This document shows positions 7,630-60,549 of a stretch of DNA of 64,000 nucleotides, in pieces. Position 1 is the first letter of the stretch. Each line of letters opens with the position of its first letter. Position numbers and translations under genes: made by a program. A model generated the notes under the pieces. That model did no database searches and had not been told where the DNA came from. It was given only the letters and a program-made list of their open reading frames with translations. Source of the stretch: a virus. Lineage: Duplodnaviria > Caudoviricetes. Location: positions 9,075 to 73,074 of the IMG/VR virus record IMGVR_UViG_3300036783_000183. One strand, 5' to 3'.

Positions 7630-8048
7630 ACGCCGCCGAGGCCGGCGCCGTCTGGCAGCTGATGCAGGAGGCACTGCACGGCCACGCCGAGCAGCTGCGC
7701 CGCGACGCGGCCGGCCGGAGTAACGCCGGCCCGCACCTGGCCAGCTACCGTGCCCGGCTGCGCGAGGAGCGCAAGCTGGCCCTGGCCGTCGAGGAGATGG
7801 TCAGCGGCATCGACCCGGCCACGCTGACGGCGTTCCTGATCATCAGCCGGACCCGGCCGCAGGACTACCCGGGCGGCCCGGAGCTGTGGGCGGTCGGCGA
7901 CAGCAAGGACGCCGACCGGCGGGCCCTGCTCTGGAGCCGGGCCGGGCACCCGCACCACCGGTTCTCCGGCGGCCAGCACGAGAAGATGTGCCGGGTCTGC
8001 ACGGGCGACCGCGACGGCCCCCAGCACCAGCCGTTCGGCCCGTCATGA
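7626..8048 (+). CDS. Hypothetical protein with C-terminal Zn-binding motif
   Basis: GTGA coupling; HPHH...CRVC...QH. Confidence 0.6.
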   Translation: MNAAEAGAVWQLMQEALHGHAEQLRRDAAGRSNAGPHLASYRARLREERKLALAVEEMVSGIDPATLTAFLIISRTRPQDYPGGPELWAVGDSKDADRRALLWSRAGHPHHRFSGGQHEKMCRVCTGDRDGPQHQPFGPS

Positions 8049-8080
8049 AAGATCTTCGAGCGATACGGAAGGACAGCATC

Positions 8081-8545: not shown

Positions 8546-9279
8546 CGACCAGCCCGCCCAGCGCCCTGCTCAACCGGGTGCGCAAGCTGCTCGCCAAGGC
8601 CGAGGCCGAGGGCGTCACCGTGCCGGAGGCCGAGGCGCTGACCGCCAAGGCGGCCGAGCTGATGGCCCGCTACGGCATCGACAAGGCCCGGCTCGGCGTG
8701 CTGCACCCCGAGACCGACCGGCCAGGCAGCCGGATCATCGACATCGACAATCCCTGGGCCCAGGTCCGCGCGCACCTGCTGGCCGGCATCGCCGGGGCCA
8801 TGCGCTGCCAGTGCGTGCTGCTGAGCACCTCGCGGCCCGGCGCCCGGATCCACGTCTTCGGCTATCAGTCCGACCTGGAGCGCGCCGACATCTTGTACAC
8901 CTCCCTGCTGCTGCAGATGCACGGCGGGCTGGCGCGGACCCCGGTCCCGGCGGGCGTGCGCAGCGTCCGCGCCTGGCGGCGCAGCTGGCTGCTCGGCTTC
9001 GTCACCGCCGTGATCACCCGGATCCGGCTGGCCGAGGACCGGGCCAAGGACGCCGCCAGGACGGAAGACGAGGGCTCCGCCGGGCCGAGCACCGCGCTGG
9101 TGCTCCGCGACCGGGCCGTGACCATCCGGCACAACCTGGAGCAGGCCTACCCGGTCACCCGGAAGACCCGGATCACCTACAGCGGCCGTGGCTACCAGGA
9201 CGGCTACCGTCAGGGTGACCGCGCCGACATCGGCCAGGCCCGGCTGAAGAGCGCCCGCGCGCTGAACAGGGGTGCCTGA
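8542..9279 (+). CDS. DUF2786 domain protein
   Basis: LLNRVRKLLAKAE...EAEALTAKAAELMARYGID and FGYQSDLERADILYTSL are family signatures. Confidence 0.85.
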   Translation: MTTSPPSALLNRVRKLLAKAEAEGVTVPEAEALTAKAAELMARYGIDKARLGVLHPETDRPGSRIIDIDNPWAQVRAHLLAGIAGAMRCQCVLLSTSRPGARIHVFGYQSDLERADILYTSLLLQMHGGLARTPVPAGVRSVRAWRRSWLLGFVTAVITRIRLAEDRAKDAARTEDEGSAGPSTALVLRDRAVTIRHNLEQAYPVTRKTRITYSGRGYQDGYRQGDRADIGQARLKSARALNRGA

Positions 9280-9938
9280 TGGCCAGGGAGTTCTTCACGC
9301 GCGAGCAGGCCATCGAGGCCGCCCGGGACACCGACGCGCTGGCGGAGCTGATCGGCATGCCGTACGCGGAGTGGGCCAACCAGTGCCACGAGGTCTCGCT
9401 CCGGCTGCTGAAGACCGGGCGGTTCGGGCCCGGCCGGGTGGCGCGCGGGATGGCCCACGGCATCGGCAGCCAGCACAGCTGGATCGTGCTCAGCTGGGAC
9501 GTGTACGACGACGAGGCACCGGTCGTCGACCCGACCTACGTCGCGACGCTGCGGTCCCTGGGCGCCGAGGGCGCGGAGACGATGCCGGACATCCTGGTCG
9601 ACGATGCCTGGCGGCTGAGCAACCGGCCGCACGGGAAAGGCTCGATCTGGGCCTACGGGCGGCCGGCCGAGCCGGCGGGCCCGGTCATCGAGCTGACGCC
9701 CTCCTTCGGGCTGTCGAAGGAGACCCGGCGCTTCCTGAAGCTGCTCGGCCCGCTGGACTACCGGGGCTGGTGCCAGCTGTCCAGCGGGCCCCTGCAGGAG
9801 TGGCCGGCCGGGGAGATCCTGCGGGCCATGTGCGACACGCCGGAGCTGAAGGTGGCCGCGCCCATCGATCACGTCGGCATGGTGACCGACCTGAACCCGC
9901 TCGGGCGGTACCTGAACCCGGCCGACCTGGAGGGCTGA
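9279..9938 (+). CDS. Hypothetical protein (NQCHEVS...QHSWIV; papain/transglutaminase-like motif possible)
   Basis: TGATG coupling; last gene of the plus-strand cassette. Confidence 0.6.
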   Translation: MAREFFTREQAIEAARDTDALAELIGMPYAEWANQCHEVSLRLLKTGRFGPGRVARGMAHGIGSQHSWIVLSWDVYDDEAPVVDPTYVATLRSLGAEGAETMPDILVDDAWRLSNRPHGKGSIWAYGRPAEPAGPVIELTPSFGLSKETRRFLKLLGPLDYRGWCQLSSGPLQEWPAGEILRAMCDTPELKVAAPIDHVGMVTDLNPLGRYLNPADLEG

Positions 9939-9940
9939 GC

Positions 9941-11044
9941 CTACAGCGCGGCCAGCTCGGCCGCCTCGGCCAGCCCGGCCATGCCCCCGGCGCCCTCGCC
10001 CGCACCGGGCATCATGCTCTTCAGCCCTCTCCATTCCAGGCCGTGCTGGACCATGCCCCCGGACCCGGAACCGGTCCCGCGTTCCGACCCGGGCCCGGGG
10101 GAGTCCACCGGCTCGTCGCTCAGCACGGACCCGGCCAGGTCGGCCCGGTGCAGGTAGCCGCCCACCACCTTGCGGGCCACCCGGCGGCACTCGCTGGCGG
10201 GCAGCTGCGGGTTGGACGCGGCCACCGACGCGGCCACCGCCTCGACCTGGCGGCGCACCGGGTCACGGCGCGCGGCCGTGATGTCCTGAGCGGGCGTCAG
10301 GTCGAAGCCGGACCCGGCCTGGCCCGCGCGGCCCGCACCGGCCCCTGCGGCCTGCTGGGCGCCCGGCAGCTGGCCTCCGGCGGCCATGCCGTCCGGGGTG
10401 GACGTGGCGCCGCCGGCCCCGGCCGGCATCGTCGCCCCGCCGGCCCCGGTGTTCGGCATCCCGGTCACCGGGGTGCCGCCCGACGTGAGCGCGGTCCGGC
10501 AGCTGCACGCGTCCGGCCGCCGGCGGCAGCTCCGGCACTTGCCCTTCTTGGTCAGCCCGGCCGCGCAGACGCAGCGGCGGGCGGCCGTGGTCCCGGGAGC
10601 AGGCTGCTGCTGGACCTGCGGCTCGGCCACCTGGGTCACGCGCGGGTCCGGGCCGCCCGGCGGGCCCTGGGGGATCTCGGAGTAGCCGTGGCTGAAGTCC
10701 GGGCCCTCGTTGTGCTCGTCGGGCTTCTCCGCGCCGCCAGGGCCGCCCTGGCCGCCCTGCAGCATGGGGGCCACCGGGTCATCACCCTCCAGCAGCGCCT
10801 CGCGCAGCAGCGCGTACCGGCGCCGGGCGGCATCTTCCAGCTCGCCGGGCTCCAGCCCGCAGTCGGCGGCGATCCGCTCGATCCGGTCGCCGGCGTAGGC
10901 CAGCCGGTGCTCCAGCTCACGCGAGCTGGCCGCCTGGAACACGAAGTCGTACACCGCCATCATCTGGGCGTCGGCCTGGGCCAGTGACGCCTGGCGTGCT
11001 TCGAGATCGTGATCGGCGCCGGCCTCGTGCCATAGATCAGACAT
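9941..11044 (-). CDS. Low-complexity putative head/scaffold-associated protein
   Basis: ATG 11044 after GGGAGG; Gly/Ala-rich; HEAG and RQAS motifs shared with other virion-region proteins. Confidence 0.65.
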   Translation of the reverse strand: MSDLWHEAGADHDLEARQASLAQADAQMMAVYDFVFQAASSRELEHRLAYAGDRIERIAADCGLEPGELEDAARRRYALLREALLEGDDPVAPMLQGGQGGPGGAEKPDEHNEGPDFSHGYSEIPQGPPGGPDPRVTQVAEPQVQQQPAPGTTAARRCVCAAGLTKKGKCRSCRRRPDACSCRTALTSGGTPVTGMPNTGAGGATMPAGAGGATSTPDGMAAGGQLPGAQQAAGAGAGRAGQAGSGFDLTPAQDITAARRDPVRRQVEAVAASVAASNPQLPASECRRVARKVVGGYLHRADLAGSVLSDEPVDSPGPGSERGTGSGSGGMVQHGLEWRGLKSMMPGAGEGAGGMAGLAEAAELAAL

Positions 11045-11087
11045 GCCCTGCCTCCCGGAGTTCTCTATCCTTCCGGGGGACAGGGCA

Positions 11088-11189
11088 ATGCCTGCCGGGC
11101 CTCGCCTCGCCGAGCCGCACCTCGACGGCCGCACCACGCCGGGCCCTCCCTCACCGGGCCCTGCCTAGCCTTGACTGCCTTGCTGCCTG
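11088..11189 (-). ncRNA. GGY-NN pentamer mini-array (2 guide-like units)
   Basis: Minus strand: GGCAG TCAA GGCTA GGCAG GGCCC GGTGA GGGAG GGCCC GGCGT GGTGC GGCCG TCGA GGTGC GGCTC GGCGA GGCGA GGCCC GGCAG GCA. Delimiters at 11173 and 11124, 49 nt apart. Confidence 0.65.
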
Positions 11190-12119
11190 CTAGCTGAGAG
11201 GATTCACGACCGGAGTGTCCGGCGGAGGCTCCTCAGTTTCCGCTGACGGCTTCCAGCACCATGCCGGCCCCATGTTGAACAGCCCGATGACCCAGCTGCC
11301 GGGCAGGCCCGATGACGGCGGCCTCGGCTCGTAGCTGGGCAGGTCGTTGCTGACGTAGTACGTCGGCACCGCGAAAGCCCGGACCAGCGCGTCGCCTTCC
11401 TGGAGCCACGTCCAGATGCCACGGTTCATGTCCGGCACGTCGGGATGGCCGGGGAGCTGGTCGGGGTCGATGCTCGGGTAGCCGACCGGCGGATCCGGCC
11501 AGATGACCGGCGGGTAATAGATCGGGTGCTCGGGATGCGCGCCCTCCGGCGGCGTCGGCGGCGGCAGCACGATCGGGTGCGCCGGGTGACCGGGTGACGG
11601 CCAGATACCCGGGGGCGGGCCGCCCGACGCAGGCGGGTAGTAGATCGGCGGCGTCGGCGTCGGCTGCGGCCCCGGAAGACCGATGTCCACGTACGGGGGC
11701 AGGTAGATCGGATGCGTCGGCACCCCTGGAGCAATCGCATCGGGAGGGATCACGATCGGATGCGCCGGCTCGACCGGCGGAAGGACGATCGGGTGTGTCG
11801 GCACCCCTGGAGCGATGGCCCCGGGAGGGATCACGATCGGGTGCGTAGGCTCACCCGGAAGGTAGATCGGGTGCGCCGGGACGCCAGGCGCAATCGCGTC
11901 AGGAGGGATCACGATCGGGTGCGCCGGGACCGGCGGGTAGTAGATCGGCGGGGTGACGCTCGGCGGCGGGCCGCCCGGGGCGATCGGGTGGGCGGGCCAG
12001 CCGGGCACCCCGAAGCCGGGGTCTACCGGCCCGGTGGGCGGGTAGTAGATGGGCGGAGTGGGTGTTCCGCCAGGTCGCTCTGGCACCCACGCTTCGACGA
12101 TGACGTACTGCCGGCCCAT
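11190..12119 (-). CDS. Proline-rich repeat protein (PxHPI[VY][IL]PP repeats)
   Basis: 309-aa ORF with a GGAGAG RBS; ~10 HPI repeats, including three near-identical HPIVIPPxAIAPGVP units. Confidence 0.8.
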   Translation of the reverse strand: MGRQYVIVEAWVPERPGGTPTPPIYYPPTGPVDPGFGVPGWPAHPIAPGGPPPSVTPPIYYPPVPAHPIVIPPDAIAPGVPAHPIYLPGEPTHPIVIPPGAIAPGVPTHPIVLPPVEPAHPIVIPPDAIAPGVPTHPIYLPPYVDIGLPGPQPTPTPPIYYPPASGGPPPGIWPSPGHPAHPIVLPPPTPPEGAHPEHPIYYPPVIWPDPPVGYPSIDPDQLPGHPDVPDMNRGIWTWLQEGDALVRAFAVPTYYVSNDLPSYEPRPPSSGLPGSWVIGLFNMGPAWCWKPSAETEEPPPDTPVVNPLS

Positions 12120-12174
12120 GGCTCTCCTTTTTCTCTATGATTACTGATTCACCGATGATGCTACAGGTACCTTG

Positions 12175-13605
12175 ATTGCTTTACCACGCCGGGCCGAGCC
12201 TCACCAGGACCTGCCTAGACGCAACTGCCTTGCCGCGCGATGCCGAGACGAGCCCCGACGAGACGTACTCACCCTGCCCAGCGCCGACTGCCATGCCCGG
12301 CGTTGCCGGGCCAAGACCCGCCGTTCCCCGGCGAGCGGTACCACGACTGCCTTGCCCGGCCAGGCTGCGATGTGCCCCGCCTTCCCGTACCACGCCCGCC
12401 AGGCGATGACCCACCGCGCCACGCGGTGACCAGCCCTGCCTACCCGCACCCGGCCAAGACGGCCTCGCCGCCCTTGCCTCGCCAAGCGACCCACGCCAGG
12501 CCCAGATCGGCCGCGACTGCCGTGCCAGGCTAGGCCAGGACTGGACGTACCGAGACCCGCCGTGCCATGACTGCCTCGCCCTACGCTCCGTGCCGGACCG
12601 AGCGCCACCGGGCCCAGGCATGCCGAGCCCCGCGTTTGCCTGCCCAGCCTTGCCCTGCCAAGCCGCGCTCTGTCATGCCTAGCCGGAGCCCTGCCTAGCG
12701 CTGACTGCCCTGCCTCGCCAGGCCAAACAGCCCTCGCCGGGGAGTGCCCCGCCTGGACGGCCGAGCCACGCCATGCGCTCCCGCCGTTCCGCGCCGTGCG
12801 CCGCCACGTGGTGCCAGGACACGCCGCGCCTGGCCTTACCTGCCGCGCCAAGCCTTGCACAGCCAGGGCGCGCCGTGCCTTGCGCCTCCGGCCGCGCCAA
12901 GCATCACCTCGCGACGCCACCCCGTGCCTAGCCCGGCCATCCTGCCGGGCCCCGCCATGCCTTGCCGCTCTGCGCCAGGACTCGCACGACCCGGCCAGGC
13001 CTAACCTGCCCTGCCGTGCCATGCCTCTCCTGGCCCGGACATGCCAAGCCTTGACTGCCGTGCCGCACCGTGCCAAGCGATGCCCTGCCCAGCCGACCAG
13101 GACGAGCCTGCCCCGCCAGGCCGGGCCTTGCCGAGCATCGCCCTCCCCGCACTGCCCAGACGGCCTCACCCGTCCGTGCCAGGACGCACCTGGCCAGGCT
13201 TTGCCTCGACGGCCGGGCCAGGCCTTGCCTTGCCTTGCCATGACACGCCAGGACACGCCACCGCCACGCCAAGCCGAGACGGCCATGCCTTACCGCGCCG
13301 TGCCGAGCTATCGGCGACGGGCCTTACCACCCCGGCTGTCCCAGCCTCGCCTGGCCTTGACCGGCCGCGCCACGCCTTGACTGCCATGCCATGCCGTCCA
13401 TGCGCCGCTACCCGGGCGTCCCGGTCCAAGCCACGGCTGCCTCGCCTGGCCTTGCCTGGCCCGTCCAGGCGGTGCCTGGCGATGCCTCTCCTGCCATGCG
13501 AAGCCCAGCCCAGCGTTGCCAGGCCCTGGGCCGCCATGCCATCCGGCCCTGCGCTGCCGCGCACCGCCCAGCCCAGCGGGGCCTCGCCACGTCCAGCCGT
13601 GCCAT
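12175..13605 (-). ncRNA. Large GGY-NN pentamer array (VIPR-like guide RNA array) downstream of the RAMP operon
   Basis: Sustained 5-nt period on the minus strand (GGCAC GGCTG GACGT GGCGA GGCCC...). GGC(A/C)GTC delimiters appear as gactgcc/gacggcc at 12286, 12345, 12458, 12515, 12569, 12703, 12756, 13053, 13159, 13208, 13278 and 13379. No credible ORF. Confidence 0.8.
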
Positions 13606-13614
13606 AAACAAGCC

Positions 13615-13649
13615 GGGGCCAGGACGGGCATGGCTGTCGTCCTGGCCCC
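13615..13649 (-). other. Perfect 12-bp GC-rich hairpin between the RAMP operon and the array (processing, leader or terminator element)
   Basis: GGGGCCAGGACG-N11-CGTCCTGGCCCC, followed on the minus strand by GGCTTGTTTAT and then the first pentamer. Confidence 0.6.
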
Positions 13650-13668
13650 GGGGCCCCGCGAGATCATC

Positions 13669-14157
13669 TCAGGCTTCGAGCACGAGCGGCTCGTCACCGC
13701 CGTTGTCGCCGTCGTCGCCGTCATCTGACGGCGGCGTGTCCCGGCGCACCATCCGGATGAAGTCCTCGAAGTGGTCGTACTTGCGCCGCAGCGCCCGCCA
13801 CTCCATCTCCATCTGGCGCTTCAGCTGCGCGGTCATGACCTCGTTCGCCTTGATCTCGTCCAGGGGAACGTAGGCCCGGCCGCCCGGGGCCGAGGGCACC
13901 GGCATCGAGTGGAACACCCGGATCTGCTCCGGGTGCCCCCGCGCGCCCACGTAGACCTCGCGGATCACGCGGACGAGCTGCCGGGCCTGCTGCACCCGGT
14001 ACTTCGGGCCCGCGACATCATCGCGCCACTCGAAGTGCGAGTGCAGCAGGTGCGCCGGATCCGAGGCGGCCTCGACGATCATCCTGGCGGTCAGGATGCC
14101 GCCGTTGGCCGCCCGGATCGCGAGCAGCTCGGCTTCGATCTCAGCCTTGGTCGCCAC
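13669..14157 (-). CDS. Conserved partner protein of the RAMP-like gene
   Basis: LLAIRAANGGILTARMIVEAASDPAHLLHSHFEWRDDVAGPKYRVQQARQLVR; overlaps the RAMP gene by 17 nt. Confidence 0.8.
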   Translation of the reverse strand: MATKAEIEAELLAIRAANGGILTARMIVEAASDPAHLLHSHFEWRDDVAGPKYRVQQARQLVRVIREVYVGARGHPEQIRVFHSMPVPSAPGGRAYVPLDEIKANEVMTAQLKRQMEMEWRALRRKYDHFEDFIRMVRRDTPPSDDGDDGDNGGDEPLVLEA

Positions 14158-15085
14158 TGCCGGCGTCCTCGGCGAGGCCCTCGCCCTCGACGGAGCCCTC
14201 GATCGCGGCCTTGTCCTTGGCCTTGGCCTTGGGCAGCTCCTCGGGCGGGGTGTCGAGCAGCGCGAAGTCGTCCAGGGTCAGGATCTCCCCGTCATTCTCG
14301 TCGAAGGCGTAGGCGGACAGGTCCGGCGCGTACTCGGCCGGCAGCTCGTCCATGATGCCGATCGCGTCGTCGTGGTCGGCGATCCGGAACGTGCCGAACT
14401 CCCCGTTGCGCTCCGGCCGCCATTCCCCGACGCCCACGCCCATGCCGCCCGCCTCGATGAGCGAGACCAGCGAGTCGCGGTCGATCAGGTTCTTGGTGTA
14501 GGAGACGTACAGGGTCGCCGACCACCTGGGGAAGCAGCCCCGGTAGCGCAGGTCGGCCGGGTGGTTGACGCCGGCCAGCCGCACGTAGTCCTCCCGCATC
14601 ATCGGCCGCCCGTCGAGCACGACCATGCGGCTCGGCTCGGTCGGCACGGAGACGCCGTAGAAGAACATGAACTGGCGAAGCTCGGTCATCTTGACCTGCT
14701 TGCCGTAGTAGCGCCCGGCGCCGATGGTGGCCATCTTGAAGGCCATGGCCGGGATGCCGAACCGGACCTCGCCGGTCTCGCCGTTGACGCCGGCCCGGTA
14801 CAGCGAGGCCAGGAACTCCCGGCGCGGATCGCGCTTCTCGGGCTGGCGCCGCACGCCCTGCTGGGCGGCGAGCATCTGCGTCTTGGCCTTCTCGGAGAAC
14901 CGGCTGACGATCAGCGGCGAGGTGCCCACGATGTCGATCGCGAGCAGCTCGGTCTCGATCGGCTTGATGACCAGCTTGGCCGGGCCGCCGGCCGGGGCGG
15001 CCGAACGGCCGCGAGCGGCGCGGGTAGTGCTGACGGTCTGGCCGTCTGCTGCCGGAGCTTCCGGCGTAGCCTGAGGTGCAGGCAT
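14141..15085 (-). CDS. Stand-alone RAMP/Cas7-like RNA-binding protein (Vipr-like)
   Basis: RAMP-like motifs: first strand IDIVGTSPL, GIPAMAFKMA (cf. Cas7/Csm3 IPGSSLKG) and the Gly-rich loop GGMGVGVGEWRPERNGEFGTF. No cas1, cas2 or CRISPR repeats nearby. Confidence 0.75.
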   Translation of the reverse strand: MPAPQATPEAPAADGQTVSTTRAARGRSAAPAGGPAKLVIKPIETELLAIDIVGTSPLIVSRFSEKAKTQMLAAQQGVRRQPEKRDPRREFLASLYRAGVNGETGEVRFGIPAMAFKMATIGAGRYYGKQVKMTELRQFMFFYGVSVPTEPSRMVVLDGRPMMREDYVRLAGVNHPADLRYRGCFPRWSATLYVSYTKNLIDRDSLVSLIEAGGMGVGVGEWRPERNGEFGTFRIADHDDAIGIMDELPAEYAPDLSAYAFDENDGEILTLDDFALLDTPPEELPKAKAKDKAAIEGSVEGEGLAEDAGSGDQG

Positions 15086-15157
15086 GGTTCATTCCCTCCT
15101 CGGGGGTTTGAATCGTGTCGCCGCCCCCGGCCGTATCCGGGGGTGGCTTATGCAGAG

Positions 15158-15187
15158 ACAATACTGATACGCGAAACGCATTGTCAA
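15158..15187 (-). promoter_or_regulatory. Sigma70/HrdB-type promoter for the RAMP operon (TTGACA-N18-TATTGT)
   Basis: tgtcaa at 15182-15187 and acaata at 15158-15163 on the + strand; ~70 nt upstream of ATG 15085 and its GAGGAGG RBS. Confidence 0.7.
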
Positions 15188-15257
15188 AGAACCTTGGTAC
15201 GGAAATATCAAGGTTTATTGATATTCCCCGGGAAAATTGTCAAAAAATCTTGGTACG
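15181..15257 (+). promoter_or_regulatory. Operator/promoter copy (TATCAAGGTTTATTGATA, 15206-15223) flanked by the direct repeat TTGTCAAA(G/A)AA(C/T)CTTGGTACG
   Basis: Direct repeats at 15181-15201 and 15237-15257 in the divergent intergenic region. Confidence 0.6.
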
Positions 15258-15438
15258 TGGTACGGTTCTGACAGGTCCCGCCCGGACACCCGCCCCCGAG
15301 GCCAGGGGGCGGTTCGCCAGCCTGGTGCACCGAACGGCAAGCGTGGTCCGCAGCCGGACCCGGGGGCGTATAGGCAGTCTGGCCGGCTTCAATCCGGCGC
15401 GTCCGGGCGGGATCCCGGCCCGCGCCCGGGGAGGAACG

Positions 15439-15795
15439 ATGACCGACGACGGCAAGCAGCCATGGGCGCCGCCCCGGCCGGTGATCATCGTCACCAGCAC
15501 CTGCTACAGGGGGTACCTGATGGCCTCCGGGCACTGTGACCAGTGCGGCGGCAAGGGCCGCCATCACCTGGCGGGCTGCCCCCGCAGAGGCAAGCAGGGC
15601 ACGCCGAAGGGCCAGCGAATACATCCCCGGGGTAATCCCCGCGACATCCCGAAGCACACCTGCAAGAAGGAGGCAGTCGGCACCGTCACCAAGCGAGTCG
15701 GCATCCGCAAGGACGAGGTGACCACGCACTACTCGTGCTCGATCTGCGGGAAGGACATGGGCTCGACAACCGAGAAAAAGGACCGGCTCTGGTAG
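15439..15795 (+). CDS. Small basic Zn-finger protein
   Basis: GGAGG RBS; CDQC...HHLAGC and HTC...CSIC motifs. Confidence 0.6.
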   Translation: MTDDGKQPWAPPRPVIIVTSTCYRGYLMASGHCDQCGGKGRHHLAGCPRRGKQGTPKGQRIHPRGNPRDIPKHTCKKEAVGTVTKRVGIRKDEVTTHYSCSICGKDMGSTTEKKDRLW

Positions 15796-16146
15796 CCCGC
15801 CACCACCACCGGGCCCCGGAGGGCCCGGCAGTGATGTGGGGGTGGGCGGGAATGGCTTCCCGCAATCGCCGGCCCAGAGTTGCCTACATAGCGCGGCGAA
15901 CCAGCACAGCGGCGCTACCCGTGACCAGCTCCCGAGCGGCCCCGAGCTGTTGTCTGTGCTTGCGCCACCCCGGCAGGGCCACCGTTGGCCACCCGTACCG
16001 GCAAGACGCTACACAGCCGCTGATCCTGCACTGACCTTAGGGCCCAGCCTGAGCGATAGCCCTTGTTCAGTCACCACCACGGCCGTCCGTCGACAGCCGC
16101 TTGAGAACCGACCCTACTCAATCCTGAATAGGATTGCTAGATATTT

Positions 16147-19100
16147 TCAGCTCCTTGCAGCCAGCGCGGCCTGGACCGTGCGCCGGAAGGCCATCGTGCG
16201 GTGCACCCGCATCGGGTCGCCCTGGTAGGCATCGGTGTTCTCGTAGCCGGTCGCGTCGGCCGTGTTCGGCGCCGCCGGGGCCAGGTCCGCGTTGCCGGGC
16301 TGGCGGCCGGAGAACGTCTGGGTGAACGGGCCGCTCTTCTGCGGCGCCTCCTGCGGGGTGCCGAGCATGTCATCCGGCGCCACCGGGGCCGAGGCGGGCG
16401 GCGGGGCGCCCTGGTACGGGGGCACGCCGCCGGAGCGGGCCGGGTCCTCGCCGCCGCCCATCGGCGGGGGCTGGCCCGGCCCGTTCAGCGGAGTTGAGCC
16501 CATCGGGTCGGGTGAGGTGCCCGGTCCGTCCGTGATCAGGTCGACCGTCGTGCCTGCCGTGACCTGCCGAGCCTTGCCTTGATGCGCCGGTCCTCGCCGG
16601 GCTACCGCAGGCACAAGATACCCGTTCCCCGAGATGTGGTACCGGTCGGCGTGGGCCCTCGCGAACTTGACGGTGAACGAGCTGTGCGCGTCCAGGCGGC
16701 GGCCGAGCACCGGGTGAGCGCGGGACAGCCGGTAGTGCTCGCCTGCCCAGGCCTCCTGGGCGTCCGGCCGGTCGGCGATGGCCGCGTACAGGCCCGCCTC
16801 GAAGGCCGGACTGCCCTGGCTGACCAGGTTCATGCCGGGCGTCCACCGGGCGGCGAACTTGTAGCCCCGGCGGAACTCCGGGTCGGCGGCCACCTCGCGG
16901 GTCAGGAACGCGGCCGAGACGCGGCGCAGGCTGGCCGCCCGCCGGTCGTGCGCGTGCTCGCCGCCGTAGCCGTATTCCTTGTCGAGCCGGTCCAGGTAGG
17001 AGTCGACCGTGCTCTCCGGAATGCCCTTGACCTGGTGCGCCCGGGTGTGCGCGTTCTTCAGGTCCTGCTTGCTGTTGACCGGCAGCTTGTCATCCGGGCC
17101 CAGGGAGTGCGCGGCGTTTTCCCGCTCGGACTCGGTGAAGTCATGCGCCTGGCGCCGCACTGAGGACCGCTGCGAGGGGCGCCCGCCCCTCGGCATGCTG
17201 TAGCCGGGAGCGCCCGGGTCCGGGACGTGACCGATCGTCCGGGCGTGCATGCCCGGCCCGGCGCCCTCCTCGCCCGGGTTGTGCAGGTGCTGGCAGCCCT
17301 CGGCGTTGCACGGCTCAGTCCGGTGCGCCGGGTGCGGGCAGCCGTAGCACTGGGCGGCCGTCCGCTGCAGGCTGGCCCGGCTGACCTGGAAGGCACGCTG
17401 GGCCTCCCCGGCGTTCATCGCCTGGCCGGAGTCGCCGCCCATGGAGCGGGGCACGTCCTGGGCCCCGGTGTCCGGCGGGCGGCCGGAGTAGCCGACCGCG
17501 TAGCCCTTGACGTACGGGGAGACCAGCGAGCTGTTGTCGGCGAACGTGGGGTGCTCGCCGGAGGCCGCGTCCTCCTGGCCGTCCCGGATGCCCTGGGAGT
17601 AGTCGGCGCCGGGCGGCTCCGGGGTGGTCTGGGCGGTGTTGAACGGCGGGCTGCCGTCGTCGGTGCTCTGGTGCGGCTTGGTCATGGTGTCGGCCTGGCG
17701 CCGCAGCCCTTCCTTCTGCCGCAGGTCTTCCTGCCCGGACAGCACGCCGGAGACGCGCTCGCCTGGCGCGGCGTGGTAATCGGGGCGGTCGCCCTGGCGG
17801 CCCTTCATCTCGCTGTACACGCCGAGGTAGTGCTGGTGCAGGTCGGGCCGGCCGGACCACTCGGCATAGTCATCCCTGCCGATCGGATCCCTGCCCAGGG
17901 TGGCGTCCATGACGCCCCGGGTCTCGTTCCAGCCGCGCATGTACTGGCCGTGCGCCTTGGTGCTGAACGCGTAGTTGTCCTTGTGGCGCGGCCTCTTGCC
18001 CTCCATGGCGTCCATCCGGCCGAACATCTTCACCGCAGCGGACGAGGGCGTCATCGAGGACCGGGCCGCCTCCTTGGACTGATCGTCCTGGTCCCCCTCC
18101 TGGCCGGCGAGCGGGAACATGACGGCGGTGTTGAGCTGGTCCGCGCCCGGGTTCGGGTTGTCGTGGGAGTCGACAGTCTCCTGGATCTGGGTCAGCGAGC
18201 TGGCGCCCTGGTGCCGGAAGTACGCCCGGTAGACCTCCGGGTCGTAGTGCTGCTGGACGTGCCGCCGGAACGCCTCCCGGTCGGCGTCGGTGGGGTCGCG
18301 GTGCGACCAGCTGTCCGGGTCGTCACGCCACAGCTCCTGGAAGGACCCGCGCAGGTGATGAGGGACATCCACGTCGGATCCCTCGTAGCCCTCGCTGTAG
18401 TGGCCCTCGTTGCCGCTGTAGCCGCCGGCGTTGCCGCCGTGATTGCCGTAATAGCCACCGGGCTCATTGGACCAGGCACGGTCCTCCGGGTGGACGGCGC
18501 CCTCGACCTGATGCTTGATCTTGCCGCAGTAGGCCTCGGGGTCGTTCTTGTCCTGGTTGGCGGCCACGCACGCGGCGAAGTCCTTGTAGCCGGCGAACGG
18601 GGCGCCCTTGCGCATGCCTTCTGCGGTCAGCCCCGAGGGGGCCTCACGAAAATCCAGGCGGCTCCCGGCCTTGGCCTTGCCCTTCTTCTTCTTGCTCTTG
18701 ACGCCGTTCGCCACGCAGTTCTTGCACAGGCCGCCGTTCTTGCCGGGCTTGCCGCCGCAGCCGGGGCAGGTGCCGGACAGCGCCGGGTTGTCGTCGCTGG
18801 GCACCGCGCCCCGGGCCAGCACCGGGCCGACCCGGGCCAGGTAGCCGTGCAGCCAGGCGATCTCGTCCTCGGTGCGGGCCTGCACCCGGAAGCCGGCCAT
18901 CAGCGCGTCGCGGTGGGCGGCCACCTTGGCCAGGTTCCCCAGCCGCAGGATGGCGTGACCCTCCTGCACGCCGAGGGACTCGAACCGGGCCCGGCGGGCG
19001 AAGTCCTCGGCGTTCATCACGTAGCCGACCGCGAGCGAGGCGGTGTGCTCGGTGCCGCGCCCGCAGTCCTGCTCGGGCCAGTGCCACGAGCTGCAGCGGG

Positions 19101-20031
19101 AATGGAAGGGCCCGTCGAAGGTCATGTCGCCGGCGTCCGCGCCGAACTGCCAGCGGAAGCCCTCGGAGTCGGGGCCGGTCAGCGCGGAGGCGATGACGTT
19201 CGGCCGCCGCTCGGAGCCCTCGTCCATGTTCTGGCCGAGGGCCGGGTTGGGCGTCGAGGGGGCGGACGGCGCCGCGCCGGGCGGCGGCACGGTGGGGATC
19301 TCGCCGGGCATGCCCAGCGGGATCTCGGCGTAGGAGTTCGCGACATCCATCGCCGTGCTGTGCTCGTTCGGGTTCGCCGCACCCGAGCCGAAGCCGGAGC
19401 CCGAGCCGTCCTGCTGCTCCAGCTGCTGCATCATCGGCGCCCGCTCGGAGCTGACCTGGGACTGCCCGGACGGGGACTCGACCTGGGTGTTGTACTCGTT
19501 CTGCTCCGGCGCGAAGTTGTCGAAGGTCTCGGCGGGGTACGGAGTCGGCGCCTGGTTGTCGTGCGAGTCCACCTCCTGGTCGACCTGCGGCAGGCCGGAC
19601 GCTCCCCGCCGGGTCAGGTAGCCGACGTAGGTCATGAACTCGCGCCGGGCGTCCAGGGCCTGGCTGCCGTAGGCGCTGGCGGCGGTATAGGCCTGGCCGA
19701 GGGCCTGCTCGCGGAACTCCTCGGGGTCCGCCTCCACGCCGGGCGGCAGGCTGCGGTACCACCGGGAGGCCTCGGTGATCATCGCGGTGCGGTAGTCCAC
19801 GGGCGCCTCGTACTCGCCCAGCCAGTCGGTCGCGGCCGTGTGCCGCTCGTACAGCGGCACCGGCTCCAGGGTTGCCCGGACGGCGGTCGCGGACAGGTCC
19901 GTCTCGCGCGAGCGCGCGATCGCGGCCGTCCGCGCCTGGTCGTGCTCGTCGAGCGCGGCCACGGCGGTAATCATCTCGTCACCCGTCTGGGCCGCCCGCA
20001 CCGCCCGCAGCAGCTCGTCACGCTCGGCCAT
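16147..20031 (-). CDS. 1294-aa low-complexity head/scaffold-like protein with internal repeats and Zn motifs
   Basis: Long ORF; repeated AS(G/S)L(P/T)Q(V/I)xxxVDSHDN; RRQA, RTAA and RRAAS motifs; CPGC and CxNC motifs. Confidence 0.75.
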   Translation of the reverse strand: MAERDELLRAVRAAQTGDEMITAVAALDEHDQARTAAIARSRETDLSATAVRATLEPVPLYERHTAATDWLGEYEAPVDYRTAMITEASRWYRSLPPGVEADPEEFREQALGQAYTAASAYGSQALDARREFMTYVGYLTRRGASGLPQVDQEVDSHDNQAPTPYPAETFDNFAPEQNEYNTQVESPSGQSQVSSERAPMMQQLEQQDGSGSGFGSGAANPNEHSTAMDVANSYAEIPLGMPGEIPTVPPPGAAPSAPSTPNPALGQNMDEGSERRPNVIASALTGPDSEGFRWQFGADAGDMTFDGPFHSRCSSWHWPEQDCGRGTEHTASLAVGYVMNAEDFARRARFESLGVQEGHAILRLGNLAKVAAHRDALMAGFRVQARTEDEIAWLHGYLARVGPVLARGAVPSDDNPALSGTCPGCGGKPGKNGGLCKNCVANGVKSKKKKGKAKAGSRLDFREAPSGLTAEGMRKGAPFAGYKDFAACVAANQDKNDPEAYCGKIKHQVEGAVHPEDRAWSNEPGGYYGNHGGNAGGYSGNEGHYSEGYEGSDVDVPHHLRGSFQELWRDDPDSWSHRDPTDADREAFRRHVQQHYDPEVYRAYFRHQGASSLTQIQETVDSHDNPNPGADQLNTAVMFPLAGQEGDQDDQSKEAARSSMTPSSAAVKMFGRMDAMEGKRPRHKDNYAFSTKAHGQYMRGWNETRGVMDATLGRDPIGRDDYAEWSGRPDLHQHYLGVYSEMKGRQGDRPDYHAAPGERVSGVLSGQEDLRQKEGLRRQADTMTKPHQSTDDGSPPFNTAQTTPEPPGADYSQGIRDGQEDAASGEHPTFADNSSLVSPYVKGYAVGYSGRPPDTGAQDVPRSMGGDSGQAMNAGEAQRAFQVSRASLQRTAAQCYGCPHPAHRTEPCNAEGCQHLHNPGEEGAGPGMHARTIGHVPDPGAPGYSMPRGGRPSQRSSVRRQAHDFTESERENAAHSLGPDDKLPVNSKQDLKNAHTRAHQVKGIPESTVDSYLDRLDKEYGYGGEHAHDRRAASLRRVSAAFLTREVAADPEFRRGYKFAARWTPGMNLVSQGSPAFEAGLYAAIADRPDAQEAWAGEHYRLSRAHPVLGRRLDAHSSFTVKFARAHADRYHISGNGYLVPAVARRGPAHQGKARQVTAGTTVDLITDGPGTSPDPMGSTPLNGPGQPPPMGGGEDPARSGGVPPYQGAPPPASAPVAPDDMLGTPQEAPQKSGPFTQTFSGRQPGNADLAPAAPNTADATGYENTDAYQGDPMRVHRTMAFRRTVQAALAARS

Positions 20032-20077: not shown

Positions 20078-20515
20078 CTAGACGGGCAACAGGCCGTGAT
20101 CGATGATCTCGTACAGCCGGGCGCCGGGCCCGTGCTCGGGATAGAACGGCTTCACGCCCCCGATGTCGAACGCCTCGCACATCTCGTGAGTCTCCACGGA
20201 CTGGATGCAGCGCAGCAGCCACCAGTGCCAGGGCAGGGCGGAGTCATCGGACGGCACGTCGAACCGGTGCCCGAATGAAGCCATCTGGCCCGGCCGGGTG
20301 CTGTCCTCGGCGGTGACGCAGACGACGAGCCTGACCGGCTCGCCCCAGGTGATGGCGACCATCGCGGGCGCCAGCGCCTGGGTCACCGCGTCCAGGGTGA
20401 CCGGCGGGCAGCCGCCCATCGTTCCGGTATGCCCAGCCTCCAGCCAGAACTGCCAGCCGGTCTTGTAACGGAACTGGCTGATCATGTTCGCCAGGGCGGG
20501 GATCCCGTTTGCCAT
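20078..20515 (-). CDS. Conserved phage hypothetical protein
   Basis: MANGIPAL...RYKTGWQF...CIQSVETHEMCEAFDIGGVKPFYPEH. Confidence 0.65.
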   Translation of the reverse strand: MANGIPALANMISQFRYKTGWQFWLEAGHTGTMGGCPPVTLDAVTQALAPAMVAITWGEPVRLVVCVTAEDSTRPGQMASFGHRFDVPSDDSALPWHWWLLRCIQSVETHEMCEAFDIGGVKPFYPEHGPGARLYEIIDHGLLPV

Positions 20516-20575
20516 GCCTGCCGCACCTTGCCTCGCCGATGCACGCACCGCCACGCCAAGCCATGACGGCCTACG
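20510..20575 (-). ncRNA. GGY-NN mini-array (1 unit)
   Basis: Minus strand: GGCCG TCAT GGCTT GGCGT GGCGG TGCGT GCATC GGCGA GGCAA GGTGC GGCAG GCATG. Preceded by the extended -10 TGCTAAGGT at 20599-20591. Confidence 0.55.
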
Positions 20576-20583
20576 CAGGTTCC

Positions 20584-21033
20584 TTAGTCAACCTTAGCAG
20601 TCGACGCCGCATCGATCAGCGCCTGCAGCTGATCGTGGCTGACCGGCGGCGTCCGGCCGTGGTCCAGGCAGTCCAGGAACAGGCCGGCGATCTCGGGCAC
20701 GGTCAGGCCCTCCTGGACCCGCTGCGCCGACCAGCCGCTGATCCGGGCGTACCAGCGGACGCCGTGCAGGCCCCGGTCGGGGCGGCGGACGGGCTCGGCG
20801 CCGGCCTTGCTGCAGGCCTGCAGGGCCAGGGCCCGCAGGGCGGGCTTGGCGATGGCCACCCGGCCGCCGGCGTCCAGCGCGGCCTGGGCGGCCTGCACCG
20901 GGTCCTCCGGCCCGCCGTTGGCCCTGCTGCGGGCGCACGCCAGGTGCCGCCCGTACAGGACCTGGGTGCCGACCGGGATCTCCTGCCCGCAGCTCGGGCA
21001 GGTGATGCCGGGTTCCCAGTTCTGGCTGAGCAC
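20584..21033 (-). CDS. Hypothetical protein with N-terminal Zn motif
   Basis: CPSCG...HLAC; ORF track. Confidence 0.55.
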   Translation of the reverse strand: MLSQNWEPGITCPSCGQEIPVGTQVLYGRHLACARSRANGGPEDPVQAAQAALDAGGRVAIAKPALRALALQACSKAGAEPVRRPDRGLHGVRWYARISGWSAQRVQEGLTVPEIAGLFLDCLDHGRTPPVSHDQLQALIDAASTAKVD

Positions 21034-24311: not shown

Positions 24312-27300
24312 TCAAGGAACCATAGCAGTGTGCCGCGCGGCGCGCTCGGTAACGGTGCCCTGCCGCTCGGCGTGGCCGTAGTAGCGGATCTCCGCCGGGA
24401 CGTGAGTCAGGCCCAGCTCCAGCGCCGCGTCCCGGCGGTGGTTGCCCTCATTCAGCTCCGGGTCCTGCCCGTGGTCGACGGTGATGAACACCGGGTTGCG
24501 GATCCCGTTCTCGGCGATGTCGCGCTTGAAGTCCTCCCACTTCTCGCCCTGCCGGTTGCGGTGCTCGCCGGGTCGCTCGCCGCGTGCGCCGCGCATATTC
24601 GAGATTTCCGAAACAGGAATCATCCCGCGCTCGCTGCGGGTGATGTGGCTCGGGTCGCCCACCGTCCCCTCGTACTCGTGCACCTCCAGCTGCGGATCGG
24701 CCGCGCCGACCTTGCGGACCCGGTGCAGCGGGATCCTGGCGTGGGTCGCGGCGTAGCCCTCGGCCGAGGCGTGCCAGGCGTCGTCCGGGTGGTAGTCGAT
24801 CTGGTAGGTGTCCGCGCGGTCGCCCCCGGGGGTGTGGTGCCGCCAGCGCTCGTCCGGGGCCGCCGAGGCGCGCGTGTAGCCGCTGTGCGCCTGGAAGTAG
24901 CCGCGCTGCCGCGCCAGCTCCATCTCACTGGGATGGGCGACCCGGTACAGGTGCTCCGGGGGCTGGCCGGCCAGCAGCAGCCCGTGCGGGCCCTGCGCGA
25001 TATGGCCGCCGTACAGCTCGCCGGAGGACGGCAGGACGGGCTTGTGCTCAGACGGGGGCGCGGGCTGACTCAGCACCTCGCTGAGCCGCTGCAGCAGCCT
25101 CTCCATCTCGTCATCCGGGTCGGCGGCAGCGGTCTTCACGGGCGACGGCTGGTAGCTGAACTCGTCGGTCCAGTCGCTTTGCGCCAGGCGGGCATGCGCA
25201 GCGGGCACGGTCTTGCTGTAGACCTTCTCACCGGGGCGGAAGTCCTGCGGGTAGTGCGGGGTCAGGCTCACCCAGTCGCCCGGCTGGATCTCCCCGCCGG
25301 CGCGGTACAGCGTGACGGGGTGATCGGGCTTCCCGCGAGCCCTGTCGATGATGCCCCGGAGCTGATCGGCCGGGCCGTAGAAGCCGGACCCGTACCCGTA
25401 CTCGCGGTCGTAGTCCGGGTGGTCAGCCAGTTCGTGCAGGGCGGGCCCGGTCCCCGGGCGCTCAGCCGTCTGGTGCGGGAGCGCTGCCGTCGCCTGCCCG
25501 GGATGCCAGCTGGTGCCATCGGAATAACTCACGCCGTGCTCCGAGCCCGGGTCGTGCGGGCTTATCCGCTCCGGGCCGATGTCCTGGGTGGCCATCCAGG
25601 CGGGCTTCTCGCCGCTCTTCGGGTTGGTGTAGGTCCGGTCCTCGGTCAGCGGCAGGCCGGACACGTCGATCTTGTACATGTGGTGATCGGCCATCTCCCG
25701 GCGCCAGGCGTCGGTGCCGGGGTGCCCGTGCTCGGGCGGCACGTGATAGACGCGATCGGTGGCTGTCAGGTAGACGGCCCTCGGCGGGTCATCGGGCAGC
25801 ATGCCCGCGCTGGGCCGGGCCGGGATGCCGTGCGCCAGTGTCTGCTCGTGGTACTCCGGCATCTGCACCCGGTACATGTGCTCGCCGGGCTGCCCGGTCC
25901 TGGTCTCCGGCGGCTGCTTCCAGTGCGCCCGGCCCCGGCCATAGGTAATGGCATGCCGCCGGATCACCGTCACCGGGTCGTGGGAAGCGTAGCCGCCCAC
26001 TCCCCGGCCCTCCTGGACCTCACCCTGGGGCTCGACCTCGTAGACCCGCACCGGGCCCTCGTGGTAGTCATCGGTGCCCCACAGCCGCGCCTGGTCCGGG
26101 TCGGTGGTGAAGTGCACCCGGCGGTTCTCCAGGTTGCTGCGCAGCGTGGCACCGTCCGGGATCTCGGCGCGGGTGCCATGGTAGTAAGCGGCGGTCTTGC
26201 CCTGAGTGCGGAAGTCCTTGACCAGCACCGGCACCGGCTTGTCGTAGCCCGCCTCGTTCAGCGCGAATGTCCGGTGGTGGCCGTTCCACAGCCAGGAGTT
26301 CTCGTCATCGTGGACCAGGGTGATCGGGTGGCTGGGCGGGTAGCTGTGCGTGTCGCCGCTCATCCCGCCGTGGCGCCGGGGCTGGTAGCCATGCTGGCGG
26401 ATGTCCTCGGCCAGCTCGCTGATGTGGCGAGACCCGCTAGGATCCTGCATGCGCCAGGCCTCACGGCTGGCATACGGCAGAAGGTCGCGCGGGTGGATCC
26501 GCTGGACGTACTGCCGGTACAGGGCCGCCGTCTTCGTGCCGCGCGGCCGGGGCGGCTCGTAGCCCTCGTCGTGCTCGTCGCGGGCCAGCCGGTGCCGCTC
26601 CGCGCCGGGGAAGAACAGGTGCTTGTGATCGATCCAGTCGCCGACCCGGCGGACGTGCTGCAGCAGCGGCTCGCCGTCGTAGCCGACCCCGGCGATCTCG
26701 CCCCGGACCAGGTGGGCGGTCTCGTCAGGCTTGTCCTCGCCGTAGTACCGGTTGCGCTCGGCCTTGACCAGCCGGCCCTGCATCTCCTCGCGCGGGTCGT
26801 TGTCGGGGCCCTCGGTGTCCAGGTCGCAGTCCGGCTCGCACCACTCGTCATGGACGTGACCACGGTCCAGGCCGTGGTCGATATCCGGGTTGCCGTGCTT
26901 GTTCAGGTCGTAGACACTGACGCCGGTCTCGTGGTAGCCACCTGCCGGGCTGAAGGAGCGCTCGCTCTTCGGCCAGTGGCCGAACCGGAGGTAGAGACCC
27001 GTCTTCTCCGAGCCGCTGTAGTCCCAGACGGCCGTGACTGCCAAGCCCTGCCCAGACCCGCCGGGCCTTACCCGTCCAAGCGACGCCTGGCCGAGCGACA
27101 ACTGCCGTGAGCTTGCCTGCTTGTCCACCCGGCTGCGCCTGACTTTATCCCACGAAGCTGCAAAGCCGGGATGCAGTGCGCCCTCGTCCTTCAGGTCCTG
27201 GATCTCATCTTGCTTAAACCAGGCATGGCCCTCGGCCTCGAAGCCGGTCGAGCCGCCGCCCTTGGGCTGGAACTTGTCCCTGGCATCAGCGACGTGGGTA

Positions 27301-53075: not shown

Positions 53076-53103
53076 CCTTCACGCTATAATCATAGCGTGA
53101 AGG
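53076..53103. other. Perfect 12-bp hairpin at the 5' end of the mini-array
   Basis: CCTTCACGCTAT-AATC-ATAGCGTGAAGG. Confidence 0.6.
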
Positions 53104-60505: not shown

Positions 60506-60549
60506 GTCCCTTCCGGGGGCAGAGGATGTGCTATAAATATTGATATTCA

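Follow-up and report, generated by a model that had tools for sequence, protein, structure and literature searches.

The short run of GGY/NN pentamers at 11088-11189 (minus strand) of the 64,000-nt stretch of phage DNA analysed here (the window) is probably the 3′-terminal ~100 nt of the staggered guide array that lies next to the gene for the Cas7-like protein Vipr, from which it would have been split off by the insertion of a ~1-kb Pro-rich gene. This mini-array belongs to the phage's VIPR system, which is itself of a published kind; new here are the split-array history and the conserved hairpin in which the array terminates. VIPR has been described as a phage system composed of the Cas7-like Vipr, a partner gene (vap) and vrRNAs made of GGY/NN pentamers, the NN bases of which read double-stranded DNA with one base skipped per repeat (bioRxiv 10.64898/2026.04.26.720920). 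The same work presented 'staggered arrays', in which units overlap by 1 nt and which its authors did not confirm by RNA sequencing (bioRxiv 10.64898/2026.04.26.720920, fig. S18). According to the VIPR papers, a guide contains 9-16 repeats, or 10-12 in the later paper.

The intergenic gap that harbours the mini-array measures 145 nt, from the TAG of a 309-aa Pro-rich ORF (12119 to 11190) to the ATG at 11044 of a 367-aa ORF, and contains the following features:

11088-11189, minus strand: mini-array (hereafter, the stump) in the intergenic gap, a chain of NN-GGY pentamers
11176-11189, minus strand: 5′ remnant, about two irregular pentamers between the Pro-rich TAG and the first register break
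11126-11175, minus strand: unit 1 (50 nt), complete and of the staggered vrRNA type, with delimiters 49 nt apart
11092-11126, minus strand: unit 2 (35 nt), terminal and short
11089-11096, minus strand: array terminus GGCAGGCA, one base off the commonest delimiter, GGCAGTCA

Read in its own direction, from 11189 to 11088, the stump is a succession of NN-GGY pentamers that sets in 1-7 nt past the TAG (11190-11192) and terminates with GGCAGGCA (11096 to 11089). Its two delimiters, GGCAGTC (11179 to 11173) and GGCCGTC (11130 to 11124), have the same form as the delimiters of the large arrays and are exactly 49 nt apart, which matches the 5n-1 (or 5n+9) type of spacing that is commonest in the large arrays of this genome, while the closing GGCAGGCA follows the second delimiter by 34 nt (34 = 5 × 5 + 9), a distance that is rare in arrays. 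The 5n-1 spacing, seen in the gap (49 and 34) as well as in the large arrays, thus matches the published 1-nt stagger. In these respects the preliminary description was accurate: the delimiter distance, the start right after the stop at 11190 and the GGCAGGCA end were all confirmed in the sequence. Its 'two complete units', on the other hand, are one complete and one shortened unit. Unit 1 is complete by array grammar, consisting of one GTC-headed pentamer and nine GGY/NN pentamers, that is, ten pentamers with nine variable NN, the last G being common to unit 2; the sixth pentamer (the fifth past the GTC head) reads GGG instead of GGY. Of the 30 units in the genome with strict delimiters, it is the cleanest, all nine of its GG (9/9) being in register. 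Unit 2 comprises only seven pentamers with six variable NN and is closed by the delimiter-like GGCAGGCA without a true delimiter. Measured against the published 9-16 repeats per vrRNA, unit 1 falls inside the range and unit 2 below it.

The pentamer periodicity of the gap is real. With a chain score that counts GGY following one another at distances of 5, 9 or 10 nt, a value of 13.0 (15 linked GGY units) was obtained for the gap, while the maximum was 5.5 both in the background (113,806 bases, or 114 kb, of the 70% GC window, taken on both strands with the arrays excluded) and among 5000 dinucleotide-preserving shuffles of the gap. These values exclude the possibility, envisaged at the outset, that the period is no better than in random GC-rich intergenic DNA. 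Furthermore, the GC3 signal that marks both neighbouring minus-strand genes ends at ~11250 and is back at ~11040, with none in between, and the gap is non-coding by this profile.

The protein component of the system is encoded on the same strand, with vipr located 3 kb upstream of the mini-array:

14141-15085, minus strand: vipr, a Cas7-like RAMP gene of 314 aa (sequence, profile and fold matches)
13669-14157, minus strand: vap-like partner gene of 162 aa, phrog_15946, kept next to vipr in relatives
15158-15187, minus strand: candidate sigma-70-like promoter (TTGACA, 18-nt spacer, TATTGT), a consensus match only
12183-13620, minus strand: main Vipr-proximal array, array B, of GGY/NN repeats

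Its best sequence match in the PDB (phmmer) is the Vipr chain of phage SUSP1 (E 0.0018), and a profile built from 33 homologues matches the same chain, 36pp_D, with an E value of 2.1e-7 across the G-loop motif GVGxWRP. An AF2 model built with an alignment attained a pLDDT of 80 (34 from the single sequence), and all of its listed Foldseek matches were Cas7-family backbone subunits of CRISPR effector complexes (Csm, Cmr, type VII, Cascade and Cas7-11), each with a probability of 1.00. Taken together, the profile and the predicted fold confirm this ORF as the Vipr (RAMP) gene. The Vipr profile match and the Cas7-family fold also bear out the initial proposal that the gap holds guide-array sequence of an RNA-guided RAMP system within a co-directional string of genes. 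The vap-like gene overlaps the vipr stop and accompanies vipr in all VIPR-bearing relatives, with phrog_15946 being a family of unknown function. The promoter-like motif upstream of vipr is the only sigma-70-like match in 10800-15400, which makes it a candidate start of a transcript reading through the arrays.

The GGY/NN vocabulary of the stump recurs at several places in this genome. It is found at 12.2-13.6 kb (minus strand) and 60.5-62.5 kb (plus strand), in each case over ~1.5-2 kb, as well as in a small locus at 52.8 kb and in a 2.4-kb array just before the window. In a position matrix over 74 delimiters, GGC is conserved (1.2-2 bits) and NN carries 0-0.25 bits. Delimiters of the large arrays are most commonly spaced by 44, 49, 54, 59 or 64 nt, and off-register spacings of 53, 58 and 48 nt also occur. 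The ends and starts of these arrays bear directly on the origin of the stump. A GGCAGGC(A/G) end is common to arrays A and D, the stump, a single unit at 20.5 kb (GGCAGGC) and the arrays of two relatives (L010 and L023). Array B has no such terminus and stops abruptly at an AT-rich leader, so that the array lacking this end lies upstream of the stump that possesses it, which supports the origin of the stump from array B. In the same vein, a promoter-like motif or a strong hairpin marks the start of each of the arrays A-D but not that of the stump, as would be expected of a split-off piece.

At their starts, arrays A (genome positions 8040-8070, 1 kb before the window) and D (window positions 60540-60575, plus strand) directly follow a shared motif, GGATGTGCTATAAA, which resembles an extended -10 promoter, and perfect hairpins of 12-13 bp precede arrays B (13615-13649) and C (53076-53103). 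The 20.5-kb unit is a tiny intergenic GGY/NN locus (20510-20599, minus strand) with a single GGCCGTC delimiter; two of its approximately nine pentamers are broken, and its terminal GGCAGGC runs straight into the ATG at 20515.

The DNA that now separates array B from the stump has the appearance of an insert flanked by a repeat:

11184-12182, minus strand: inserted cassette of ~1 kb, supported by GC3, synteny and GGY count
11133-11183, minus strand: direct repeat, right copy, 51 nt, 42/51 identical to the left copy
12183-12233, minus strand: direct repeat, left copy, which is the last unit of array B, 42/51 identical to the right copy

The cassette is made up of a 63-nt AT-rich leader with an RBS (12182 to 12120), the 309-aa Pro-rich ORF (12119 to 11190) and a few bases thereafter. 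GC3 supports coding of the ORF, and the counts of in-register GGY fall to zero across the cassette. The two repeat copies sit at its edges exactly 1050 nt apart. Aligned from 11183 to 11133 and from 12233 to 12183, they agree in 42/51 positions; no other match on either strand of the 73-kb genome exceeds 37/51, and the same pair is also the top BLAST match. The left copy is the more decayed of the two, with GTC and AGC replacing two GGY. A direct repeat placed exactly at the cassette edges supports the split origin, and from its extent the right-hand insertion junction can be put at about 11184. No RNA run was found to contain this DNA, and contigs from four soil DNA runs, short and of low depth, were uninformative: they break at 11094/11096 and 11194, the edges of the stump, which fits repeats or strain variation, and a single X4 contig in which 11183 is followed by 28 different letters and then by 12559 is too weak to be relied on. 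Strains of ~90% identity in other soil samples carry the 3′ end of the Pro-rich gene, which weighs against the proposed split.

The Pro-rich protein is a member of a family for which we collected 328 homologues and which features repeated HPI-type proline motifs. A locus scan with a four-sequence alignment detected no array, vipr or vap within 3 kb of the homologue in any of 21 other viral loci. That these homologues live elsewhere without an array or vipr nearby supports the view that the gene was added to an existing array. It is a large, unannotated family of soil viruses. The ORF combines repeated H-P-I proline motifs (PxHPIVIPP...GVPTHPIY) with a conserved Trp-rich C-terminal domain, its DNA includes 2.8-3.1 copies of a 78-81-nt tandem repeat (11701-11948), and it has no match in Pfam or PHROG.

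Comparison with relatives provides the order of events. An alignment of homologues of the 367-aa gene yielded 34 loci from IMG/VR and JGI metagenomes. Those in which the homologue is at least 50% identical fall into five lineages (L009-type, L010, L022/25, L023/24 and L042), with L038 as the exception, and in all five, array sequence leads up to the start of the 367-aa homologue. Wherever a VIPR-bearing locus is long enough, the gene order is 1294-aa gene, vipr, vap, array and 367-aa gene. The array is unbroken from vap in L010, L022 and L023; in L009, the periodicity is poor over the ~900 nt that follow vap, and the L042 locus does not extend as far as vap. No Pro-rich homologue occurs in any VIPR-bearing relative locus of the five lineages and, among the loci fetched, the Pro-rich ORF is present only in this phage. 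In loci with less than 50% identity, as well as in L038, VIPR is missing and the 1294-aa gene directly abuts the 367-aa gene. The last ~70 nt before the start codon can be aligned between the gap and the array ends of the relatives, the GGCAGGCA terminus being kept in L010 and L023 and a related form in L009, L022 and L042, and this alignable 3′ junction likewise supports the split origin.

Because the 1294-aa and 367-aa genes are adjacent in the VIPR-less relatives, the vipr-vap-array cassette appears, from this synteny, as an insert between two old neighbours. In turn, since the array is ancestral at this position in all VIPR-bearing relatives and the Pro-rich ORF is confined to the present lineage, the latter would be a second, younger insert, an insertion dated only against relatives at 50-60% identity, although closer ones exist (P0122, 74% protein identity; P0181, 85%). 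This reverses the initial suggestion that guides had been inserted into a polycistronic mRNA: the array is the ancestral element and the Pro-rich ORF the insert. As to the check proposed at the outset, whether close relatives lack the mini-array, array sequence reaches the 367-aa homologue in five lineages at this level of identity, all of them devoid of the Pro-rich ORF. As a side observation, the whole vipr-vap-array cassette amounts to ~5 kb, including a small ORF at 15208-15729, when 9941-20031 of the window is set against L011-L017 and L027-L038.

The preferred course of events would thus begin with a single array that extended from vap to the start of the 367-aa gene and ended in GGCAGGCA and an RBS-bearing hairpin. 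A moron-type cassette of ~1 kb, consisting of the AT-rich leader and the Pro-rich ORF with its HPI repeats, would have landed in this array one and a half units before its end, leaving a duplicated guide unit on either side. The stump would retain an intact 50-nt unit, the short 35-nt terminal unit and the original terminus. Having neither a promoter nor a leader hairpin of its own, it would be transcribed by read-through from the vipr/array/Pro-rich transcript. Unit 1, presumably released by processing, would then probably still take up Vipr, with one protomer on each GGY/NN pentamer, and, as in published VIPR, would guide the binding of double-stranded DNA via its nine NN, with one target base skipped per repeat. 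The downstream mRNA would begin with the terminal hairpin, which would also control its translation.

Whether the stump still supplies a guide deserves separate consideration. It might be a dead relic that is transcribed but furnishes no working guide, and that is retained only for its last 60 nt, which the next gene requires as a 5′ UTR, an outcome we hold to be unlikely. Such a fate would accord with the missing leader, with a unit 2 that is too short, with the visible decay of the sister repeat copy (12183-12233) and with the single GGG pentamer of unit 1. In the structure of SUSP1 Vipr, a pocket excludes purines at the third GGY position (bioRxiv 10.64898/2026.04.26.720927), and a purine at exactly this place counts against the loading of unit 1. 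It would also accord with the lack of a target found for unit 1 under the published criterion (1-nt skip rule and an NN match of at least 80%; VIPR papers). An exact target was absent from IMG/VR, the four matches in unrelated bacteria compare with ~10-20 expected by chance on a rough estimate, and the window contained no target even when up to 3 mismatches were allowed. The best match in 550 kb of sequence from relatives (14/18, or 78%) equalled that of order-shuffled controls, although with 18 specified bases such a search has low power. Set against this, both delimiters of unit 1 are intact and its register is the cleanest in the genome (9/9), whereas a relic as old as the decayed sister copy should look worse. 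Judged by its standing as the best-preserved of the 30 delimited units, unit 1 is likely still usable.

The second novel element is the structure into which the array terminus is built:

11038-11094, minus strand: conserved hairpin, supported by folding and covariation
9941-11044, minus strand: conserved 367-aa gene of unknown function, kept in relatives

The 5′ arm of the hairpin is the terminus GGCAGGCA, and the 3′ arm holds the SD GGGAGG (11056 to 11051), the AUG (11044 to 11042) and the next codon, with GGCAGGCA pairing with the AUG and that codon. The array does end in GGCAGGCA, as first described, but this end is not simply placed just before the RBS: the two lie on opposite arms of one stem. 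The predicted folding energy is -36.9 kcal/mol (z = -5.35), and none of 200 shuffles folds as well. The same fold is found in L010 and L023, and compensatory changes affect 4 of the 17 consensus pairs (five distinct relatives' sequences). The proportion of paired cells is 92.5%, compared to 85% in shuffles, none of which (0/500) attains this figure, and to 28-52% after sliding of the partners. The hairpin is missing from VIPR-less relatives, in which the 367-aa gene abuts the upstream gene translationally. The ATG at 11044 and its SD are kept in relatives. As for the 367-aa protein and the products of its neighbours, Pfam, PHROGs, PDB and the Atlas gave no clue to their function, so the 'head-protein' label given earlier to the 367-aa gene has no library support, and a tblastn search with this gene against phages returned nothing.

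Since the hairpin hides the SD and AUG of the 367-aa gene, a regulatory link is conceivable. In its strongest form, either the polymerisation of Vipr on the last pentamers as far as GGCAGGCA or a cut at the terminus would unfold the hairpin and free the SD and AUG, coupling translation of the 367-aa protein to the assembly of the VIPR RNP or to array processing. We consider such a Vipr-responsive leader improbable as the main explanation of the gap, yet several observations speak in its favour: the start site is buried at -36.9 kcal/mol, the hairpin is kept with compensatory changes in VIPR-bearing relatives and missing from VIPR-less ones, its 5′ arm is the array terminus itself, and the design in which GGCAGGC leads into a start codon is seen again at array A and the single unit at 20.5 kb. 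However, a role as a 5′ stabiliser, or as a barrier against the spread of Vipr filaments onto the mRNA, would fit the hairpin equally well, and the covariation derives from five distinct sequences only. Moreover, the end of array A, which has a similar GGCAGGC, stem and start codon, folds non-significantly over its 71-nt stretch (z = -1.08). If such a switch did operate, the assembly of guide RNPs would license the expression of a conserved virion-module gene.

It is very unlikely that the mini-array arose independently, as one or two guides inserted on their own into the intergenic gap of a polycistronic operon. Precedents of a kind can be named, namely the other very short GGY/NN loci of this genome (at 52.8 kb and the single unit at 20.5 kb) and the published solo and orphan vrRNAs (bioRxiv 10.64898/2026.10.15.759431). 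The latter, known from VIPR-null phages and satellites, are likewise very short loci away from a main array and use Vipr made elsewhere, but the stump is located 3 kb from vipr on the same strand, as a split-off piece rather than an independent locus. Against a separate acquisition also stand the relatives, in which the array is ancestral and the Pro-rich ORF the novelty, the orthology of the 3′ junction to the end of the relatives' long arrays, the lack of a leader or promoter, and the flanking direct repeat that ties the stump to array B. Finally, chance periodicity of GC-rich DNA, or a coding extension of a 398-aa ORF starting at 11137, is refuted by the chain scores (13 versus at most 5.5 in background and shuffles) and the GC3 profile of the gap, as well as by the ATG at 11044 with its SD being kept in relatives, even though an open frame does run from 11137 and G-rich DNA has few stop codons.

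A CRISPR array was considered and rejected. Repeat scans revealed no CRISPR direct repeats (24-40 nt with unique spacers), the Rfam scan was empty, with no CRISPR family match, as was the tRNA scan, and there is only one RAMP gene.

Among known systems, the closest are the VIPR staggered arrays (bioRxiv 10.64898/2026.04.26.720920, fig. S18; structures in 10.64898/2026.04.26.720927), with which the present locus shares the alternation of GGY with hypervariable NN, the position just downstream of a gene for a Cas7-like Vipr and a small partner gene, the residence in a phage, and units that abut with a 1-nt overlap and 5n-1 spacing. It differs from them in that the last one and a half units are parted from the array body by a protein-coding insert, and in that the array end is fused to a hairpin with the RBS of a conserved downstream gene. 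The type II VIPR of Escherichia phage SUSP1 (Vipr, vap1 and four vrRNAs; PDB 36pp) uses the same pentamer code, and the Vipr of the present phage has its profile match to 36pp_D. The SUSP1 vrRNAs, however, are separate RNAs, ~100 nt in length, that comprise 9-16 repeats and carry a conserved pseudoknot tail at the 3′ end, whereas the units described here are 44-64 nt long, tail-less and arranged head-to-tail; the array of this phage has no pseudoknot tail, unlike type II VIPR, and its Vipr is 314 aa long, compared to 202 aa in SUSP1. A further parallel is offered by CRISPR arrays interrupted by insertion elements or genes, where foreign DNA also cuts the array and the distal part keeps the original end. 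In contrast to these, the stump has neither CRISPR repeats and spacers nor a leader-proximal logic of acquisition nor an Rfam match, and what interrupts the array is not an IS element but a moron-like ORF flanked by a 51-nt repeat.

For the evolution of VIPR arrays in phage genomes, the split would mean that an array can take up a foreign gene without losing its end. The conserved hairpin ties the 3′ end of the array to the translation of the next gene, a connection for which we found no description in the consulted parts of the published VIPR papers, which are centred on tailed type II guides. For annotation, the present case serves as a warning that short 'orphan' guide loci in the vicinity of vipr may be fragments of one array and not independent loci.

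Two further stretches of the window resemble array sequence inside genes. At 27020-27125 (minus strand), a stretch of ~100 nt that contains a GGCAGTC delimiter and has an in-register GGY density of 9 per 100 nt lies in frame within an 1805-aa polyvalent ORF (24312-29729), where GC3 dips locally and resumes in the same phase; this stretch is either an array-derived linker or a product of chance. At 16550-16590 (minus strand), within the 1294-aa ORF, a short pentamer-like stretch ends in GGCAGGCA and is accompanied by a 10-nt tandem repeat at 16549-16574, which is probably due to chance or coding.

At the nucleotide level, megablast of positions 9000-14500 of the window against phages gave no match, and pattern scans of IMG/VR for Vipr and the 367-aa gene retrieved no relatives. 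Homologues of Vipr do occur in actinophages, as proteins of ~190-200 aa that are annotated as hypothetical and are 41-52% identical over residues 38-237. Their carriers are the Gordonia phages UmaThurman, Pipp, Ecliptus and ODay and the Mycobacterium phages Saal, Donkeykong and others; in UmaThurman, the gene adjoins an integrase/repressor/excise module (L008). The phage described here has a high-GC soil organism as its host, which, going by the homologues, is probably an actinobacterium, and the Gordonia and Mycobacterium phages with Vipr homologues could become laboratory models for actinobacterial VIPR.
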